From Microthyrium microscopicum (taxonomy: Eukaryota), in NCBI GenBank assembly GCA_010405405.1, contig MU004232.1:1321481-1385480 (forward strand): a DNA stretch of 64,000 nt, read 5' to 3'. This document shows positions 33,421 through 44,855 of this stretch, piece after piece. Under the pieces are notes generated by a model. It saw nothing but the letters and a program-made list of their open reading frames with translations, searched no databases and was not told the origin of the DNA. A program made the position numbers and the translations under genes. How positions within the stretch are numbered: the stretch's first letter is position 1; each line of letters starts with the position of its first letter.

Positions 33421-34179
33421 TATGGAATCAGATCAATCGTTGATGGTGTAGAAGTTTTGGAACTTAAGTAAGGGCTGGTAGGTCCGCAGGTTCGAAATCA
33501 AAAAGGTTGAAGTGGCTAGCAAAGTACCAGGCAAATTAAATGAGTAGGTTCTCAGCCTATTGTAATATGAGAATGTGAGAGTGACTGAATGTTGGCGGTG
33601 TTGACGGTGTTGTTGCCCGAGGGAGAAGGTGAGATTCGCTGGCAAAGTGAAAACGAGGCGAAAGATACGCACCTAGGAAGGCTCAACAATGGTACCGAAT
33701 CTAGGTAGTGCTCTTACCGCGCTTGGTAGGAGGTATCGCTAAGCTCCCTTATATGAGGTTAACTTTCTGATGATCATATTGGAGCTTGACTTACTGAAGT
33801 CACTATACGACCAGTGTCTTGCAAAATACACACTTAGGTACATAGCAAGCTATGAACCATCGCTTTCGCGTTTAATTACCCCCCTATGGACGTACTTGGG
33901 TGTATTATGAGAAGGAAGGGTTAGTTTTGAGAAGAAAAGGATTGTATAAGGCTGAACAAAGCTGGACAAGGCTGAGAGAATATCCAGCCCTGGCTGCTTG
34001 AAACCACCCGCCAGCTTGCTAATAATACTTAATAGCATAACATATAGCACGTAAATTAGTCCGCTCTATACATTTATCATTCTCTAAACTAGCGTCCCAA
34101 AATTAAAACTATAGATCATCAACACCTACAGAATGATCTGCAAAGATTCAGTCAGTCTCTCACCACCCTGTCGTTCATT

Positions 34180-35586
34180 ATGCAGTCGTTTGCTTTAAGT
34201 CTGGTGTCAAGTTTGGCATTCCTCTGGAGCTTAGCTCTAGCCAGTCCTGATCAGCAGCTTCAAATCAACACCGTTGGCGATGTCAAAGAATGCACAGTGA
34301 CCCCAGCTGGGCCTGGCAAAGACGATGTTCCCGCTATTCTCAAAGCATTCAAAGAGTGCAATTATGGCGGGCGCGTTTTGTTCCCAAAAGGCCAGAGATA
34401 CTGGATCGCTACCAAGCTCAACCCTGTAGTTGATACGATTGAGATAGACTGGCAAGGAGAATGGAAGGCAAGTTCTACGGCGCATAGTTTTAGCGATGGT
34501 GGTGTACTAACAGCGTCTGCTAGTTTTCCGATAATCTCGAATACTGGCGCAAGAACTCCTACCCTATCGAATTCCAAAATCACGCAGCGGGCTTCATCCT
34601 CGGAGGCAAGAACATCAAGATAGACGGCCACGGTACCGGCGGCATCCACGGCAACGGCGACGTATGGTACAACGATGAAGAAGCGAAGACTCGACCTGGT
34701 CGTCCCATGCCATTCGTGCTGGTGAACGTGACGGATGTGGTGGTCAAGAACTTTTATGTGATTCAACCACAATTATGGGCAATAAACATAATGGGCGGCA
34801 AGAACCTGGAGTTTGAGAATATCTACGTGAATGCGACGGCTACAAGAGCGCCTTGGGGCAAAAATTGGGTGCAAAATACTGACGGATTCGATACGATGGA
34901 TGCGAAGGATGTGAAGTTAACAAATTTTGTGTACCAGGGAGGTGATGATTGCATTGCGATCAAGCCAAGGAGTTATAATATTGAAGTTAGGAATGCGACG
35001 TGTCGAGGAGGAAATGGTATGGCTATTGGGAGTCTTGGTCAGTACCAGGAAGATTCGACGGTGGAAAACGTACTTGTCAAAGATGTCAAGGTGAGTAATG
35101 CCAATGTCGCTTCTATTCCGCCCTGACAGCTGGCAGATTATCCGCTATAATGAGGACATGCACAACTGCGCTTATATCAAAACCTGGATCGGAGAATCAG
35201 TTGAGCAGAAAGGATACGAGTCAGCTGGCAAACCACGAGGCGGCGGATGGGGAATCGTCCGAAACATTACGTTTTCTAATTTTGACATTGATGGAGCTGA
35301 CGGAGCACCATCTATCAATCAAGATAATGGCAATAACGGCAAGCATGCGGGCTCAAGCAAGATGGAGGTTTCGCAGATTGTGTTTGAGAACTTTAGAGGG
35401 CATCTCAATGGGCGATCGTCAGTAACATCAAGCATCAACTGCTCGAAAGTCAAGCCATGCTTTGATATTGAATACCGCAACTTCAAGTTGAGGCCCAAGA
35501 AGGGCGCGGAGGGATTCGGCACTGGAAAATGTAAGAACATCAAGCCTGGCAGCGTGAAGGGGCTTGCGGGTGAGGGGTGTAGTTGA
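34180..35586 (+). CDS. Secreted GH28 pectin-degrading enzyme (exo-rhamnogalacturonase/exo-polygalacturonase type)
   Basis: Signal peptide, DDVPAI..AF..C, NTDGFD, GGDDCIAIK, GMAIGSLG and YIKTW. Introns 34468-34523 (GC-AG) and about 35091-35136. Confidence 0.9.
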
Positions 35587-35659: not shown

Positions 35660-36469
35660 TTATCTTTTGATGCGCTGCTGAGTATCCGACTTGGAGTCAC
35701 CACCGCTTGCGGTATCGGTTTTCTTGCCAGCCATCCATGAGGCAAAGTCGCCAGCCAGATCCATATTCTGTATGTTCGACGTCGTGGCGGTCGCGCCGGT
35801 TCCCGACTTTTGCATCGCTTCGAATTCGGCTTTCATTTCGGGATCCACTGCTTGATATTAGACATGCTCTGTGACATAAGCGAGAGTACTCACTGTTGTC
35901 CATAATGTATGGAATTCCAACAACCATCGCAAGACTGAAGATGGCGATGAGTATCATAGGACTTTTGAGGATTGAAGTGGCCGAAACTGGATTGAATGAT
36001 TAGCTTATGGCAACGTTGGATGATCAACGCTCTTACATGACGGTCGGTCATAGTAGTACTCTCTCTTTGCAACAGCGCGGACTTGGATGTTAGCCTGAGT
36101 ATCCGCAGCTTCACATCCCCCTCGTTGTTCTCCTGTGTTGGTCCATTCATTTCCGCGATATGTCTGCCATGATGCGACCTCTCCGCTTGGCTCCACGTCG
36201 ATGCGCAAGTTCTCAAATGTCACATCTCGAGAGTAGACGCTAAGTAGGTGGGACCCAGGGGGAACATCTGCGAAGACGAAGTTGTTGTGTCGAGATATTG
36301 GAGCGATCAAAGGGCTGCCATTTGATGATAGGACGGCTTTCGTGTCGGATGGAAGAGTTGCAGGATTGGCGAGAATATGCGTGGCGGGAACGTCGATTTG
36401 TATGCGTACGGAGGACACGAGAAGGGGAAGGGCTAGTATCAGCAGGGCTGAGTTTTTCAAGGGCCACAT
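35660..36469 (-). CDS. EMC7: ER membrane protein complex subunit 7-like (DUF2012)
   Basis: Signal peptide, NPATLP, FVFADVPPGSHLL, WQTYRGNEW, EYY..R, LKSPMIL..transmembrane..PYIMDNMDPE. Two introns. Confidence 0.8.
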
Positions 36470-36853
36470 CTTAGGTATTTCTGAGGTTCAAGAGCTGTGA
36501 TGGGGATGGGGATGGATGCGGTTTGAGGAAGTTGAAGTTCTGAACGCGGATGCCATGTGGTTCGAAACGGCTAGCGTCAAATATTGATCCTAGCCCCAAG
36601 CGTGGCGAGCAGAATGCGCTTTCTATTGGATGAAATTAACTACGACAAGGCTGAAATTGAGCAAAGTGTTTATATTTGTGTTCTTCATGTTTCAATGATG
36701 GCAATGACTAAGTACAAAATACAATCAAGGTTGTAACCGCATTTATTGGCGATCACGAGTATCTATAGAATAAGGCCACTGCAACTGTCCTCATCACACC
36801 TTTCGCAGAAAAAACCAAACTCGTCAAATGGCTGAAAGGCCCCCACAATTAGC

Positions 36854-37451
36854 CTAGATCTCGATGCTAGGGCGGACCTTCTTGAATCGTTGAACCAGGA
36901 TCTTCATTGCGCGAAGGGGAGTGTCCATAGGCTCCTGCTTGATCTTGACATCGCCATCAGAGGACCCTCCGGATAAGGTGACACTGGAAGTCAGAGCTGG
37001 CGTAGTGTCCTGGGATGGCAAGCGGCTCATTGGTGTCAGCTGTATTTTGCGAGTGCTGCCATGAGACTGTCGATGATGGATCTTGCGCTGGCGTCGTTCG
37101 AGCTTTCCAAGCTCTTTCGACACAGACTGGCGGAATTCGGCACCAATGGGTAGCTTGCTTGGTGGAGTGCGAACCGACTTTACGGATTTGGGCTGTCCGT
37201 TCTCGAACTTGATGCGAAGAATTGGTTCTATTGAAAGGTTAGTATGGCAGGAGGGAGAAACCGCTAGGGAAGATCTTACTGCAGTATTTGCGGTTCCATT
37301 TGGCAAGGGCTTTCTTCTGAGCCTCCTTGTGCAGTGAGCTGGGTTCGTCCATTATGGATTCGGCGAAAGGTTCGGCTTGCTGGTTCAGGAAGTTGCGGGC
37401 TTGCTTATGAAGCATGAAGGCTTTGGCACTGTGGGCACAGTAGATAGACAT
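36854..37451 (-). CDS. Hypothetical basic protein (~180 aa, 2 exons)
   Basis: ORFs 37451-37239 and 37306-36854 join in frame across a GTAAGA..TACTAAC..TAG intron (about 37229-37280). No family recognised; contains VKIKQEP. Confidence 0.5.
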
Positions 37452-38025
37452 TTTGGCAGAGAAGCGGAATGTCTGGGTACTGAAGGCAAGTTAGGTAGTA
37501 AGTGAGTAGTAAAGTCACGCTGCAGAAAGAGTAAGTGTTTGCTGGCAAAGATGCAGATGGTAACTGCGCAAGTGGGAACTTACTGAGATCTGTAGTGTCT
37601 GGAATAGACGTTGTAGACAGTCAGATGTAGAAATGGTTGGGTTTGCTATAAGCTGATAAAGCGACAATGTAGGCCGATTTGCTGTAGCTGAATTGTGATT
37701 TGATCGTGATATATGATGTCGAATTTGAAACGTGATGGAGGGATCGAAGAAGTCTGAGATCAAGTTGGCGAGCAGCTGGTTTTGTAGAAACCGTATTGTA
37801 TTGTCAGCCGCTTAGATCTATTGTGCAGATGTCAGATGCCATATTTTCCACTCTAGATCCCCCAGATTGCCGAATTGGGAAAGGGCACCTACTCCAACCA
37901 TATGTTCTCGCAAGACGCAATTGGTTAAACACCTGGATATAGGCAGCATCAATAGATAGCAAATAAACATTGTTCTTGAATAGTGAAATTCTATTCATGT
38001 CATTGTCCCAATTTCAAATCTGCGA

Positions 38026-39225
38026 TCATGTGGGCGGCGTCCAGTCCATCTCCTTTTTCAAGAAGGCTTTTACCGCAGGCTTGATCTTTCCTGTTACCTT
38101 GTTCCATTTGGTCCTGTCCGTAAATGGTTTGGCTTCATAAATCTGGGATCCACGCTTGACATAATCACCCAGCAATACGATCCTGCCTTTCTTATCCGAA
38201 CTAGATGAACGGAAATTAACCAGCAGTTCCCTTAGTCTTATCAGATTGATTTGCTGGGCTAAAGTGAAGACGATGATGAAGTCATTGGTAGTGAAAAGAT
38301 CCTTGGGCAGACCTCGCGCCTTCCGCTGGGAGATACTGGTTCTAACCTGATGCTTGAAAGGAAAGTCCAGCAACTTATTGTCGAACAGTGAGTCCATTGC
38401 TACGAAATTTGGTGTCTCCGCTCCCGGCTTGAGTGCTAAGTTTAGTTGAGCCAACTCTTTTTGAGGTCCGGCGGTGTTTGATACAGCCCATCCATGAGAG
38501 TTGATCGATGCAATTCTCCAAGTGAGCTTCTTTCGTAGCGTTGACTCTCCGAGCAGCTTCATATAGCCTTCAGCGATGCGACTTCGCCCAACGTTATCTC
38601 CGTCGACAAATGTGATGGTGCAGTTCGACATTACTACTGGCGATGGAGATGGGCTACGAGCCGCCGGGATAGCGGGAACAGTTAGTGGAGCCGGAGATGG
38701 GCTCTTGCCTACCTTCTTCTCCTTCTTCTTGCCCGGTGCCTTTGACTGTGCGGCTTTCTGCTGCATTGCCGCGTTGTGTGCAAACGCAGACAGCAACACG
38801 ACAAAGCGGTTGATATCAATCAAATGTGCCTCAATGCTCTCCCCAAGAGCTTGCAGCTTATCTGGACTCGAGCCCAGAACGTAGACCAGGTGCGCCACCC
38901 AGTCGAATCGAAAGATGACGCCGCCAGGACCTTGATTCTCCTTCCAACGACGCAGCAGATCATACACGTCTTTGGCGTCGTCCTTGACTGCGCCAATGAG
39001 GTCGTTGAGTCGCCGGACTTGTGTTGCGCGCAAGCTAGCTATGCCGCCGGGGTTTTTTCGAGTGTCGAGTAATTCCTGGAGTTCCTCTAGATAGTCGCGC
39101 AGGCGAGGCATGCGCTTGCCTATCTTTTCTATTTGCTCTGTGTAGTCTTTGACTTCCTTATAGAGGTCAATAGCTTTTTTAATTAGAGCGATAACTTCGC
39201 CTGGAGAGACTGGTGATCCGGCCAT
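38026..39225 (-). CDS. Intronless 399-aa protein: SesA/HeLo-like N-terminal helical domain + LMW phosphotyrosine-phosphatase-like fold lacking catalytic residues
   Basis: Start in AAAATCATGG context. N-terminus SPGEVIALIKKAIDLYKEVKD..EQI..L..L. C-terminal region ITFVDGDNVGRSRIAEG, RKARGL...DFIIVF and IVLLGDY parallels LMW-PTP motifs. Confidence 0.7.
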   Translation of the reverse strand: MAGSPVSPGEVIALIKKAIDLYKEVKDYTEQIEKIGKRMPRLRDYLEELQELLDTRKNPGGIASLRATQVRRLNDLIGAVKDDAKDVYDLLRRWKENQGPGGVIFRFDWVAHLVYVLGSSPDKLQALGESIEAHLIDINRFVVLLSAFAHNAAMQQKAAQSKAPGKKKEKKVGKSPSPAPLTVPAIPAARSPSPSPVVMSNCTITFVDGDNVGRSRIAEGYMKLLGESTLRKKLTWRIASINSHGWAVSNTAGPQKELAQLNLALKPGAETPNFVAMDSLFDNKLLDFPFKHQVRTSISQRKARGLPKDLFTTNDFIIVFTLAQQINLIRLRELLVNFRSSSSDKKGRIVLLGDYVKRGSQIYEAKPFTDRTKWNKVTGKIKPAVKAFLKKEMDWTPPT

Positions 39226-40193
39226 GATTTTGGGAGACGAGAGTCCTCTACCTATTCATTTTCACAGAGGTATGGTCATGAAAAGGGATGCTCGTTAACG
39301 GTTGTACCTGGTAGTTGAGTTTAGCATGCGCTAGTAATGGCTAAAAATAGAAATGCTACAGCCTCGTTCACACATCAATGTCAGCAATCATACTTGCGCA
39401 ATGTTTTATGAAGAGCGAGATATCATCAAGTTCAAGGAAGGCTTTTCATCCAGAGATTATAAAGACGACCGGTGCTTATAAACGAATGGTTTCATTTCAA
39501 CAAGGAAATCACAGTCCGCCTTTTTACACTTATACATCTCATCTACTGGTAACCACACGACCCGAAAACAGTGTACTCTGCAGCGCATCAGAAGCCAACA
39601 ATTCTTCAAATCTCCGCATCCTTTTCACAGGACCCTAACATTTCCAGCCAGGCAGGGAGATCAACAGAAGAATTGTGACAAGAATTGCTCACAAAAGCCA
39701 CGAACCATTGCCACACACACTGCTTGACACACTACTATTGCGCTGTCAATCATTCCATGCACCAACCACCATGTGCCTCAGTTCGCCAATAATAAACTCG
39801 TTTCCTCTTTCTCCAACCTCCGTGGTGAATGCATCGGGACTTGCAATTCCTGGTAATCATAAGTGTTCAAGCTTTGTAAGCAAGGGGTTAATCCAAGGCA
39901 AAGCAGAAAGGTAATGACAGTAGGTGTAAATGTCTGGGCCAAAAGAATGTATGTTGTTGCTGATTAACGAGACAGCCCAGAACAATATGAGGCTGAGAGA
40001 CATGCAGAATAAGATGAGTTCATATCCCATGACTACTTGGGATAAGTAGCGAAACACAAACATTACAATCCTTTGAGCACTTTATGAAGGCTCAATCGGG
40101 GTGTGAAGAGTTTTTAGTAACCACAACAAATGGGTTACGTCGAAGGAATCTTAACTTCCGATGCGAAAACAAGCGCAATGATATGGTTCATTG

Positions 40194-43100
40194 CTAATGA
40201 ACATATGCTTGAACTTGTGCAGCGTCCGAATTGTGTTGTGCCTGAGCATGTGCAGCTTTTAGTTCTTGTGCATGTCGCTTGGTATTCCACATGCGGGTCA
40301 AGATAGAACCATCTGGATGTCCAGAGCGCTGGGAAAATCCTGCTACAGCTTGATCAATGCGGTTGGTGATGACATCCATGATACGTGGTAGCACGGAGCG
40401 GTATTCCTCGTTCTAGGCAACATTAGCAGATTGCTCCGAGAGCGTATGGAGTGATACATACCAGTGGGTCTAGGACGTTAAGGGCATAGTCGAGCCAGTC
40501 AAGTCGATCTTTAAGATTCGTAGCGAGTGTAAAGCTCACAGCTGCTGTAATCGAAAGGATAACAAGCAAGCCAGCATTCTCCATAGATTGAGGACCAAGA
40601 TAAAGGAAAATTTGATCAAATATCAAGCCTTGTCTATTGGAATGGAGCCACTAATACACGTTAGAAAAAGGATGCCTTTGATGGATGATGGTAACTTACT
40701 TGGACGAAAGCTTCATCAAGGTTTCCACCATGAATCAACCGAGCGATGGTTTGGAGTTCTTCTTGCTCCTCCGAGAGCTGTGGAGTTTGTTTACGGACAG
40801 CGGGTGTAAATTGTTGAGCCACTTGTCCAGTAGGAACTGCACGAGAAAGATCTTCTGACTGGCCTCGAGTATGGCTACCAGAAGCCTTCAATACCTTGAC
40901 AGAAGAAGCTGGCGAAGAGTGCTCCATGAGCGCTCGCATGTCGGTCTGGAACTTTTGTTGTTCAGAGGCCATTGATCGGGTCACCGCAACAAGCGCCTGG
41001 ACCTGAGAGGTAAGTTCGTCGATCTTGGTACGGTCCTGCTGATGACGAGCTTCATAGGAGCGAAGCTGATCACTAACGCGTTGTTCAACTTCCTGGGTCA
41101 TGTGCTGAACCGATGCAGCTGTGTTGTTCTGTAGCAATGGAACCACTTCCTTGAAAGCAACAGGGAGAGACTTTGTCAACAAGTCACCCACCTGCTTCGA
41201 TACGGTGTTGGAGATGCCACGAATTAATGCTCCATCATTAAGGATTTTGCCTAAGCTGGCCTCGATAGTCTTCTCCATTTCGCGAGGAAGCGAAGTTTTG
41301 AAGGCATTAGAAAGTGTGGACGTAATGCTGCGATCGATAGTGCCATTGACAGAGTCCTTGACGGTTTTCATCTCCATTTTCATGGCATCATGAACCATTC
41401 GTGTAGCATGATTCTCAAAGTTGTCATTCAAGGATTTGGTAACTCCGCGCAGAATGGCGTCCTGCTTGGCCTGACCAAGGGCATCCCCAGTTCGTTTGTC
41501 GTCTGCCATGCGGCGATAGAGGATGTTGAACTGGTCAGTGAGAATGCGAGTAAACTCGGAAGACATAGACATCTCCAAATGTTTAACAGCATCGGAAACC
41601 GACGTATTTTCAACGAGGGGTGCTTTGTTCCTTGAAGAAGGTGTTTGAAGAACGGCGACGGATGGCTCGAGTCCTTTCTCAGCTTCAGCACCGGCTTTCG
41701 ACGGGCTGTGTTGAACAGAAACTGCCTTCGCTATCGCACTTGCCGAACTCTTAGATCCAGCATTCTCTCCCTTCTTCTTTTTCTTCTTCAAGCTCTCCTT
41801 CTCTGGTGCCTTTTCTTTTTCTGACACTTTTTCTTTCTCCTTCTCGAAAAGAGCTGGCGGCGGGATGAGGCGCACTCTATTGCCCTCGGTGTCCTGCTTT
41901 ACACTGCTCAAAGGAGTAGGCGGTGATTTGATGGATACGTCCTGCTTGGAGGCCTTGCCAGGGCTATCAGTCTTAGTTTTAGCTGACAGGCTCTCTTGAT
42001 TGACAGTTGGTTCATCCTGTTCTGGTTGTTTTAAAGGCGTCATCTCGAAGGCATCCAGCTCGATCGCGTGGATCTTGGTCATGCCATCTTTGGTAACGCT
42101 GAATATCTTTGCGTCTTTATCCAGCTCGAGTCCGTAGCCCATCATCTCACGAGTCAGACTGAATTCGAATATTCCTTTTGAGTGCATGCAAATGGCCGTA
42201 ACGATAGCTCCAATGGGGGCATTATTAGTGTCCTCTGAAGATGCTGGCTGTGAGCTCACAGCGTCGGCTTGCACATCCAGGCTCCGAAGTTCTCCACGCT
42301 GTCCCAAACGAAATTCTCGGATGTTTGCGAAGATCAAGGTCGAAGCAACCGGATTGAGGTTCTTGTTTTTCTCAGCGCACATAGAAACAAACTTGGCTTG
42401 TGTAAGAGCAGATGGGTGGGTGTAAACCGGCATCGATACATTAATAATGTAAATCGAATTACGGGTTGGGTGACCGACTGCTAGAATCATGGATCGTGGA
42501 TTGTAAGCCAAGGTGCAGATGGCATCCGATTCATCACCGTGCGGGAAGTTGAGCTCCTGTACAACTTTACCGAGCTGAATATCCCAGAGCTGGATGGTAT
42601 GGTTTTGCTTGAGACCAATGATGAGGTAGCGGAGAGCTAATCCTCTATTCATTGGCTTCTCTCGATCAATGAACATCACCGAAGTTGGCCAGGATTTCTC
42701 CGTAGGCAAAGTCGTGTTCATCGTCATAATTGGAGTGACAACCTCCGCAACTTCTCCCTTGCGAGTCTCCTTCTTGAAATGGTCTTTAGTCAAAGGACGC
42801 ACGTCCCAAAACTTGAGCTTTCCAGCCTTGTCAAGCGAAGCGATGACAGTGTCATCCGCGCTCCAAGCAAAATCTTTCGCGGCCTTTCCAGTGCAAATTT
42901 TGAGATCGTCGTCTTGAAGGTATTTCGCGCTGTCACAGATATCGGTTTTGGGATCTGTGTATGCGCTTGAGCGGGCAAGTAGAGGATAAATGATGTGGAT
43001 GTTTTTTCCACGTCCATATGCAAAGAATTCATGCGATCGATTGCTCGGTTTGATCCGAGTTTTGAGCTGCCCACTAGAAGTCTGTTCATCCAGAGATTCG

Positions 43101-44855
43101 ACGGCTGGGAATACAAAACCTCGCTCATCATCAGTGGTACCAGAAGGACCATTTAGGCTGTTCAAAGGAGACCAATAGACGCTGCCTTTAACGCCAGTTC
43201 CCAGGACAAGTTCTACCACTGCATGGCCTGTCGCAGTACGGGTTCGACCGATAGCCAGATTAAAGACTCGATCACCAGAATTAGCGTACAACTGCTTGAA
43301 TTTACCAGAGTCTTGACGTATAATGCGAAATCCGCCACCCTTTAGCACATAAACAATAAATCGTGCGGTACAGGCGACTAAAGTTCGATCCAACTGGTCA
43401 AAATCTTTGCGCATACGAGCAACATTGGTGATTTTCGAATCTTTGATAAGAACCGGCTCCGGATATTTGCTACCATATTGATATGAAACAAACGGTAAGA
43501 GAGGTAACCACATGACAACTGGCGGTGGCTCATCTCGCTCTTCAACCTCATCTTCCCAATCTGCGGCAACAGAGGATGAACCGATAGATTTAGGAGGAGA
43601 GGGCAGGTCCTTGGTGACAGCAGGTCGTACAGCAACAATAATTTCTGCAGGGTTGATATCGATTGGGGCGGCTTTTGCCGACAATTGCTCGAGCTTTTCC
43701 TCAACTTGCTTGTCTGCTTGTTCCCCAACAATATCGACAGCTTCGGCCACAGTTTCGCGCTGACGAGCTAATGGGGTCAGGGTTTTTGGTGAATCACCTG
43801 GGCCAATCTTTCGAGACTTTGGATTTGGTACTGGTGGGGACTCGTTGCTCTGTGCGCGAGAATGCTTCAATGCTTCGATCTTTGGAGTTGCAGCTCGGCT
43901 GGTTGGCTTGGATCCTTTCAGAGGCGATGCAGCCGATAATTGCTCAAATGGATTGACATAGGTGAATGGCGCTTTAGTTTGAGGCGGATTGAAGTCCAAA
44001 GATTGCTCCTGAGATTGACCAAAGACGCGGGCAGCATTAACGGGGGATTGGGGCACAATGGCTTGTGCTGGCTCTGAAGCGAACAATGTTGCGGTTGTGA
44101 TTTGAGTCATCTGCTCTTGTTGCGGCGAGTTTGAAGTCGTCACATCGGCAGATGCACGCATAAAGCCAGGAAGGGGTGTATTCCCAAGTTGCGGAGCAAA
44201 TGGGCTGACAGCAGGAGGTGTAAAACTCATGGGAAGAGAGTTGTTTGCAGAATCTCCGAAAGATACAACAGGGGGCTTCTCTGGTTTTGACTGATTAAGC
44301 AACTTAAGCAGAAAGTCCTGTGGATTTCCAGATGATGATAATGCTTCTCCTCTCAAATCTGGACGACTGGCTGAAGGCGCGACGACAGATGGTGGAGCAA
44401 CAGAGCGAGGCATGATGGAGGGGCGAGAAAACCCAGCGACTAAATCGGCAGCGGACACTGGACGATTTGCGGTCGATGTAACGTTTGCGGGAGTTGTTCG
44501 TTGGTCTATAGGAGCTGGTCTGGATGGTTGATGATTGACCTGACTAGAGCGTAAGAGTCCAAGCAAGTCGGTTTGATTGATTGGAAGGGAGGGACCGTTC
44601 GATGGCTCATGTGAAGGTGTGCTAGTATTTGGGCTCTACGTGGATATTAATGGCGACAATACTCAGTCAAGTTCTTAAACATACCATGATATCGCCTGGG
44701 TGGCGGGGCGGTGGACCAGAAGGTGCTGGCGAGTATATTGGAGAAGACACACTCGGCTGATGGTACTGATTATGAGGCGCCGCATTGGAAGGCGACGAGG
44801 TGGTCTCGGATGAGGTGGACTTCAGCCGAGCTAGAAGACTTGAAAAGTCGCTCAT
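40194..44855 (-). CDS. EDC4/Ge-1/Pdc1-like mRNA decapping scaffold (WD40 propeller + coiled coil + C-terminal domain)
   Basis: Low-complexity N-terminus, FTYVNPFEQL, WD40-like segments (GKAAKDFAWSADD..DKAGKLKFWDV, GLKQNHTIQLWD, VGHPTRNSIY) and a helical C-terminus (LLVILSITAAV..RLDWL). Four introns. Confidence 0.8.

Follow-up and report, generated by a model that had tools for sequence, protein, structure and literature searches.

A sparse Pezizomycotina protein family joins a probable SesA/HeLo-like domain to a low-molecular-weight phosphatase fold with aspartate at the nucleophile position

In other proteins, among them HET-S, HELLP and MLKL, modules of the SesA/HeLo superfamily are effectors that target membranes or bring about cell death. 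Pseudoenzyme precedents include the pseudophosphatase STYX and inactive rhodanese modules in which Asp replaces Cys. [quoted passage not shown] The sesA and HeLo-like annotations overlap strongly (PMC4986451; PMC12258605), and models of HeLo-like domains have a four-helix core in common with MLKL (PMC9815663). The MLKL pseudokinase releases its four-helix bundle (4HB) after phosphorylation, and some fungal HELL domains are found in proteins with kinase or pseudokinase domains, an arrangement reminiscent of MLKL (2025 review, PMC12881547). On the phosphatase side, the D2 domains of receptor protein tyrosine phosphatases (PTPs) have been discussed as pseudophosphatases (PMC7772506). Here we analyse a gene of Microthyrium microscopicum whose predicted product combines an N-terminal helical domain, probably of SesA/HeLo-like type, with a C-terminal domain of the low-molecular-weight PTP (LMW-PTP) fold in which Asp stands in place of the nucleophilic Cys. 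The gene lies in a window of 64 000 nt (GenBank assembly GCA_010405405.1, contig MU004232.1, positions 1,321,481 to 1,385,480) as a complete intronless coding sequence (CDS) of 399 aa at 38026..39225 on the minus strand, an open reading frame (ORF) running from ATG to stop (stop codon 38026-38028). All features of the protein, hereafter the query, are given in window coordinates on that strand.

An AlphaFold2 model computed from a 38-sequence alignment (mean pLDDT 83.3, pTM 0.56) divided the query into three parts. Residues 1-165 (38731..39225) formed the N-terminal domain with five helices (8-24, 30-53, 67-95, 108-118 and 121-161), residues 166-198 (38632..38730) a disordered Lys/Pro/Ser linker (pLDDT <50 at 168-195) that includes the sequence ...GKKKEKKVGKSPSPAPLTVPAIPAARSPSPSP..., and residues 199-399 (38029..38631) the C-terminal domain, in which strands and helices alternate from 202 to 393 and both LMW-PTP cysteines are absent. 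The assignment of the C-terminal domain to the LMW-PTP fold is strongly supported. The Pfam LMWPc match of the query itself scored 21.5 bits, below the 23.2-bit gathering cut-off (E 2.8e-4, residues 204-255). A profile of the family matched yeast LTP1 (1d1q, 1d1p and 1d2a; E 5e-5 to 7e-5) and human LMW-PTP (5kqg; E 6.5e-5) over both halves of the domain, and its alignment paired the family stretch W-R...S-A-G with human W-R-V-D-S-A-A-T-S-G. Structure search of the ESM Atlas gave TM scores of 0.67/0.80 over 155 residues (199-395) to LMWPc clusters, high enough for the Atlas to name a family, and LMWPc was carried by every one of the 30 clusters nearest in language-model features. The order of strands and helices in the AlphaFold2 model agrees with this fold, a parallel beta-sheet with helices on its flanks and the P-loop at the beta1/alpha1 junction. 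Single-sequence phmmer searches of PDB sequences yielded no match for the C-terminal domain, two for the whole protein (E ~2 only) and 11 for the N-terminal domain, all with E of at least 0.42 and all to unrelated helical proteins; NCBIfam returned nothing meaningful for three family members.

The phosphate-binding loop (P-loop) of the C-terminal domain reads FVDGDNVGRS (residues 206-215; 38581..38610), a D-x5-R motif in place of C-x5-R. It was placed at the junction of strand 202-208 and helix 214-231 (pLDDT 94-96), the same strand-to-helix position that the C-x5-R loop occupies in active LMW-PTPs (PMC7772506). D208 and G213 replace the two LMW-PTP cysteines, and N211, R214 and S215 are present. 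Family-wide column counts were based on alignment A2, comprising the 103 matches of at least 300 aa from the exhaustive search described below. The nucleophile column contained Asp in 100 members and Glu, Ser and Gly in one each, with no Cys, and the column of the second Cys contained mostly Gly (61) or Ala (25). F206 was conserved in 98 members, Asn211 in 93, Arg214 in 97 and Ser215 in 90. Other loop positions departed further from LMW-PTPs, the residue following the nucleophile site (position +1) being Pro in 60/103 and the Gly position mostly Tyr, His or Phe (also Asp). A FastTree phylogeny (103 sequences over 398 columns, midpoint-rooted and with SH-like support values only) placed Asp at the nucleophile site in every deep clade, indicating that it is ancestral to the family, and its near fixation alongside retained Asn, Arg and Ser marks the Cys-to-Asp change as family-defining and not as decay. 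Thiol-phosphate catalysis is impossible for such a domain and the anion cradle of Asn, Arg and Ser is conserved; the domain may be a 'dead phosphatase'. One subclade (P0104, P0105, P0113, P0115 and P0127; support 100) has a further altered P-loop, F-[LV]-D-x-x-D-x-x-[RP]-A, with Asn211 changed to Asp and Ser215 to Ala, and P0105 additionally has Pro at Arg214. These sequences could offer a natural contrast in studies of binding or activity.

Scanning the 103 members against 24,736 Pfam families (matches counted at E ≤0.01) showed that only LMWPc (47 members, best E 1.1e-6) and SesA (43 members, best E 1.1e-5) recur, every other family matching a single member. Since these two alone recur family-wide, the sub-threshold matches of the query are more than chance. 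SesA, the only recurrent N-terminal family, aligned residues 11-93 of the query to profile positions 4-82 of 122; Pfam gave no direct match to PF17111. The nearest Atlas clusters by features scored 0.93-0.95, and in some of them 13-26 % of members were PF17107 (SesA) or PF17111. The best structural neighbour was a cluster with 77 % PF17111 members (TM 0.62/0.74 over 126 residues), in a row flagged by the Atlas as 'under the bar: name no family'. PF17111 is named 'PigL_N' in the Atlas and the same accession is listed as Helo_like_N in PMC9815663. The first helix of the query was amphipathic and not transmembrane-like, its best 17-residue Kyte-Doolittle mean being 0.84. Together, sequence matches and models suggest that the domain is probably kin to the SesA/HeLo-like type.

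A first-pass annotation of this DNA, made from its letters, had proposed a SesA/HeLo-like domain fused to an LMW-PTP pseudophosphatase. The ORF and the P-loop and D-loop stretches it quoted agree with our translations, the layout of helical N-terminus, Lys/Pro linker and C-terminal domain agrees with the AlphaFold2 model, and both the LMW-PTP fold and the loss of both cysteines with retention of Asn, Arg and Ser are borne out. It had suggested a survey of homologues for the Cys-to-Asp change, and the change is family-wide and ancestral. The N-terminal assignment stood in part, with moderate support: family recurrence and the Atlas neighbour favour it, and the query falls below the Pfam threshold. 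'Pseudophosphatase' holds only as far as thiol-phosphate chemistry is concerned, and Asp-based chemistry would still be possible, as that annotation had itself allowed. The function it proposed, an immune or cell-death sensor-effector in which a dead phosphatase gates the helical domain, is putative, and several signals of context that fungal non-self genes would be expected to show are absent here, as set out below.

The family is a small and old one of the Pezizomycotina. A word-indexed search found 37 other proteins that align with the query end to end, nearly all covering 97-100 % of it. Named members came from Diaporthe (three species), Coniochaeta (three), Phialemonium, Seiridium and Diplogelasinospora, with apparently one copy per named genome, and the closest relatives of the query were JGI records at 44-56 % identity. 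An exhaustive phmmer search of 1.84 billion cluster representatives returned 120 matches at E ≤1e-3, of which 92 reached ≤1e-10 and 45 reached ≤1e-30; the longest was 610 aa. Matches below ~250 aa ended abruptly within the linker or P-loop and were therefore taken as truncated gene models, not stand-alone domains. The full-length two-domain architecture was kept in the 37 other proteins and in most of the 120 representatives. Two metagenome scans found no relative. The PFK2 gene in the window provided two points of reference. Its product was closest to Dothideomycetes (63-69 % identity to named members; another record reached 78 %), and as the named relatives of the query are Sordariomycetes the family spans at least two classes. 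By the same tool the query gave 38 clusters at E ≤1e-3, compared with at least 3970 for PFK2 at E ≤1e-50. The gene is thus not the universally conserved housekeeping orthologue that the first-pass annotation had named as fatal to its proposal.

Some members carry additional segments. The Coniochaeta group (P0021, P0025-P0028 and P0030) has Lys/Ala/Pro-rich C-terminal tails of 100-150 residues, one of which belongs to a member matching the histone H1-like HC2 family (E 0.0037); being polybasic, these tails could interact with acidic membranes or with nucleic acid. P0151 and P0154 are divergent, long-branched and extended at the C-terminus by ~90 residues, and they may be paired on the tree only through a long-branch artefact. 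P0151 also has a differing N-terminus and a degenerate P-loop with G at the Asp column and N at the Arg column.

The linker contains a cluster of Ser/Thr-Pro (S/T-P) sites at S175-P178 and S191-P196 (38638..38703), which are candidates for proline-directed phosphorylation. Column entropy across the linker was ~3 bits, close to the greatest variability that a sequence can show, except at the S-P positions immediately ahead of the C-terminal domain (P192 0.9, P194 0.3 and P196 1.1 bits). Counting over the 35 residues that precede F206 in the alignment, at least one S/T-P was present in 82/103 members, at least two in 62 and the full [ST]P[ST]P in 52, and the mean of 2.16 per member compared with 0.90 in composition-preserving shuffles, a 2.4-fold enrichment. 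In P0048, P0070, P0099, P0112 and P0122 the N-terminal domain and S-P-S-P are separated by a Lys/Glu/Gln-rich insert of 80-200 residues, which by eye resembles a coiled coil. The two domains are therefore not at a fixed spacing from each other, but the S-P cluster keeps a constant distance to the P-loop.

The region of the general acid, or D-loop, reads IYEAKPF in the query (residues 362-368; 38122..38142), where the canonical Asp-Pro motif has become E364-A-K-P367, i.e. an acidic residue followed by two extra residues before Pro. Column 364 was variable across the 103 members (D 30, E 16, A 15, N 8, T 5, others), columns 365-366 were gapped in 94 and P367 was Pro in 73. Exact D-P was retained in some clades such as the Coniochaeta group, and Glu with a two-residue insertion ahead of Pro characterized the three-member subclade of the query. 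A second acidic column, 361, held Glu in 71 and Asp in nine members; the query has Gln there, alone in its nine-member clade. The earlier claim that the catalytic Asp has apparently been lost accordingly calls for refinement: the D-P motif of the query is altered, and with E364 kept and the column variable the residue has not been lost uniformly. By column entropy, the variable stretches of the C-terminal domain were residues 246-272, 292-300 and 356-370, of which 246-272 and 356-370 map onto the regions of the W-loop and D-loop, two loops that border the LMW-PTP pocket (as defined in PMC7772506). Within clades the C-terminal domain was less conserved than the N-terminal domain in 11/11 pairs (for Diaporthe, 78-87 % against 89-94 % identity). 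Between clades the order was reversed in 3/5 pairs, and over 595 pairs mean identity was 42.9 % for the N-terminal and 47.6 % for the C-terminal domain. Faster short-range change of the C-terminal domain at its pocket loops would fit a recognition module attached to a conserved output module.

The locus is a real, conserved and transcribed gene. A contig of 2360 nt from run X5 covered 39248 to ~36698 with no joint within the CDS. It lacked three short introns (37818-37892, 37520-37583 and 37228-37279; GT..AG on the minus strand), all of which were kept in the DNA-derived run X3, and must therefore derive from spliced RNA. The contig end (run X5 record 2) leaves a 5' untranslated end of 23 nt at 39226..39248; it does not mark a mapped transcription start. 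The three introns lie downstream of the CDS stop, in or before a separate 181-aa ORF within 36698-37990 (minus strand), where one exon, 37280-37451, has a weak histone-fold match (CBFD_NFYB_HMF, E 0.026), and the contig probably merges two adjacent same-strand genes. Its continuity from the CDS into 36698-37990 could reflect overlapping or read-through transcripts, or a long intron-bearing 3' untranslated region (UTR). Runs X5 and X6, from two other studies, matched the window at no less than 99 % identity in the parts that they covered. The sole variation from another strain within the CDS was a single 221-nt piece from run X8 (depth only 3.5) with six differences, including C>G at 38153, which by codon reading gives Arg358Pro within the variable D-loop.

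Upstream of the gene lies a homologue of the EDC4-like pdc1 with a beta-propeller (40661-44413, minus strand), and EMC7 (36005-36469, minus strand) flanks it on the other side; PFK2, GH28, P450, PMT, Nup54, Mak10 and others are located farther away. The RNA-derived contig of the EDC4-like gene reaches ~39515, giving a 3' UTR of ~1.1 kb and leaving ~270 bp to the end of the query contig at 39248. A GH28 polygalacturonase (34093-35586, plus strand), which occupies two or more frames (34524-35126 and 35095-35586) with introns as the presumed cause, and a P450 gene (31627-32841, minus strand) are the only content near the query gene that does not look like housekeeping. The query relative P0005 and the PFK2 relative P0249 both originate from a 1,509,668-bp contig, which hints at conserved linkage.

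The reading that we prefer, to which we assign a rough probability of 0.38, is a two-module switch resembling MLKL, whereby an anion- or phospho-ligand-receptor domain controls a SesA/HeLo-like output module. The LMW-PTP-fold domain, with Asp fixed at its nucleophile site, keeps the Asn/Arg/Ser cradle of an anion-binding P-loop, and could act as a Cys-less receptor for a phospho-ligand. That ligand might be a phosphorylated partner, or the protein's own S-P-S-P linker once phosphorylated by a proline-directed kinase, and its binding would decide whether the helical module is restrained or released. Ligand binding, linker phosphorylation, gating between the domains and an output at membranes or in cell death are all steps that we infer by analogy, as would be any role in immunity. 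Prediction of a complex between the two domains scored 0.03 (mark 0.34) with alignments unused, and speaks neither for nor against docking. A further reading, in which the Cys-less domain reads phospho-Ser/Thr-Pro in the protein's own conserved linker or in a partner, and on docking releases a membrane-attacking domain of 4HB type that executes cell death with neither an NLR nor an amyloid relay, we hold to be unlikely.

Several observations weigh against the proposed switch. The SesA match of the query scored 19.1 bits against a gathering cut-off of 26.3 (E 1.5e-3), its best structural neighbour is the Atlas row under the naming bar, and first helices across the family were only moderately hydrophobic (Kyte-Doolittle median 1.18, maximum 1.82). 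The P-loop departures beyond the Cys may mean that phosphate binding is absent altogether, and linkers rich in Ser and Pro are common in disordered regions of fungal proteins. The neighbourhood consists of core or housekeeping genes, and Pfam found no NACHT, NB-ARC or HET domain in the 44 long ORFs of the window. No proteins of NLR length (700-2000 aa) with the N-terminal domain were found among 817 candidates, which is weak evidence, and neither an amyloid motif nor an NLR partner was found for the query, whose C-terminus is a folded domain. In noting no such partner nearby the first-pass annotation was correct, given the window ORFs and long relatives examined here. No paralogue expansion was visible. 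The allelic diversity that it had proposed to survey was not evident in runs X5 and X6, the runs of the two other studies, where sampling is thin.

Much of the same evidence would suit an ordinary signalling adaptor with no part in immunity or cell death, its Cys-less fold acting as an interaction scaffold in the manner of STYX and its N-terminal domain as a generic oligomerization module. The company of EDC4-like, EMC7, PFK2, PMT and Nup54 genes, an apparent single copy per named genome, the linkage hinted at by the shared contig, the lack of visible diversity in the two other studies and the missing NLR or amyloid link all favour this, as does the fact that the literature, in its accessible portions, itself deduces SesA-type cell-death activity from homology. 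A pure scaffold would not be expected to conserve an anion cradle so strongly, however, the recurring N-terminal Pfam match is to SesA and not to a generic coiled-coil family, and so sparse a family would be unusual for a core signalling component. We judge an adaptor of this kind somewhat unlikely. A chance fusion of an upstream ORF with a degenerate paralogue of LTP1, or some other decaying or mis-predicted gene, is barely credible: both Pfam matches are indeed sub-threshold in the query, but intact frames and full-length architecture across deep clades effectively refute decay, AlphaFold2 modelled both domains with confidence and the CDS sits within an RNA-derived contig.

The same P-loop could also belong to an active enzyme, with Asp208 as nucleophile and an acyl-phosphate intermediate formed within the PTP-type loop. 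Its substrate would be a phospho-compound with a good leaving group, or a lipid head group, and the helical domain would merely localize or oligomerize it. The nucleophile column lends itself to this, with Asp in 100/103 members, one Glu and no drift towards Gly, Ser or Ala, and with the cradle retained. Around the general acid the record is divided: an acidic residue precedes Pro in 46/103 members (D 30, E 16), exact D-P runs throughout clades such as the Coniochaeta group and column 361 is Glu or Asp in 80/103, but column 364 is unconserved (A 15, N 8, T 5, others) and the query itself has Q361 and broken D-P spacing. Pro at P-loop position +1 in 60/103 would moreover remove a backbone NH donor. 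A C215D mutant of PTP1B has been characterized structurally and functionally, according to the title of the paper on it, and reportedly retained weak activity. We know of no natural D-x5-R phosphatase, and no mention of the motif as DX5R, D-X5-R or DXXXXXR was found in the literature searched, both of which count against an Asp-based enzyme; we regard it as unlikely. In sum, the phospho-receptor switch remains our tentative preference.

The pairing of a SesA-like domain with a Cys-less phosphatase appears to be undescribed. No account of an LMWPc-SesA/HeLo-like fusion or of a natural D-x5-R LMW-PTP was found in the literature outside subscription-only papers and supplements, in line with the remark in the first-pass annotation that it knew of no such architecture. 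A 2026 paper on the fungal pseudophosphatome, in its accessible portions, reports a Cryptococcus Ltp1 that lacks the motif altogether, deals with model fungi only and does not cover the query family. A 2015 screen for HeLo/SesA effectors, according to the part of it available, retained only sequences of ≤310 aa, and this limit would exclude a family of ~400 aa. The family is likely to have escaped description because both its domains fall just under Pfam thresholds, because the model fungi in which pseudophosphatases were surveyed do not have it, and because screens for HeLo-type effectors filtered by length or NLR linkage. If the switch is real, it would extend the MLKL principle, in which a pseudoenzyme controls a helical killer, to a second pseudoenzyme class with a phosphatase fold, link regulated cell death in fungi to proline-directed kinase signalling and offer a simple two-domain test system. 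Were the protein a direct executioner, it would represent a necroptosis-like fungal switch derived from a phosphatase fold instead of a pseudokinase. Independently of any role in cell death, a strictly conserved natural D-x5-R P-loop in an LMW-PTP fold matters for phosphatase enzymology, being either a phosphate reader of a new kind or one of the rare instances in which a PTP-type cradle holds a carboxylate nucleophile.

Of the described systems, MLKL and the fungal HELL-kinase/pseudokinase fusions offer the closest likeness in plan, with an N-terminal helical module (in the query probably of HeLo/4HB type), a long helix and linker, and a C-terminal domain derived from phospho-signalling; MLKL further shares with the query an enzyme-derived C-terminal domain that lacks the canonical catalytic residue. 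The query is not a member of that group, as its C-terminal domain has the LMW-PTP fold and is no pseudokinase. Kinship of its N-terminal domain to the MLKL 4HB rests on the sub-threshold SesA matches and the Atlas model match, and neither an activating kinase nor a death phenotype is known for the family. The HET-S, HELLP and SesA proteins and the NLRs with SesA/HeLo-like domains resemble the query in the N-terminal position, size and all-helical nature of the domain and in the Pfam SesA match. They differ in that the query has a folded C-terminus of 200 aa in place of a prion-forming tail, and no adjacent NLR or NLR-length relatives were found for it. With the LMW-PTPs (yeast Ltp1, human ACP1; PF01451) the family has in common the fold, the order of motifs, the beta1/P-loop/alpha1 junction, the P-loop Asn, Arg and Ser, the W-R...S-A-G stretch, an F-D-Y-I-like strand and the C-terminal helix. 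Of the features that define LMW-PTPs, the nucleophilic Cys and the D-P general acid are missing from the query, as is a match above the Pfam threshold. The family instead has Asp for the nucleophilic Cys, Gly or Ala for the second Cys, Pro or Gly and a bulky residue for the loop Leu and Gly, an insertion of ~30 residues in the W-loop region, a variable D-loop and a fused N-terminal domain, in contrast to canonical LMW-PTPs, which stand alone at ~160 aa. Like STYX and the receptor-PTP D2 domains, it keeps a phosphatase fold in which another residue stands for the nucleophile, and its proposed role is one of regulation or binding; unlike them, it has the class II LMW-PTP fold, a conserved acidic substitution and a partner domain that probably comes from the fungal cell-death toolkit.

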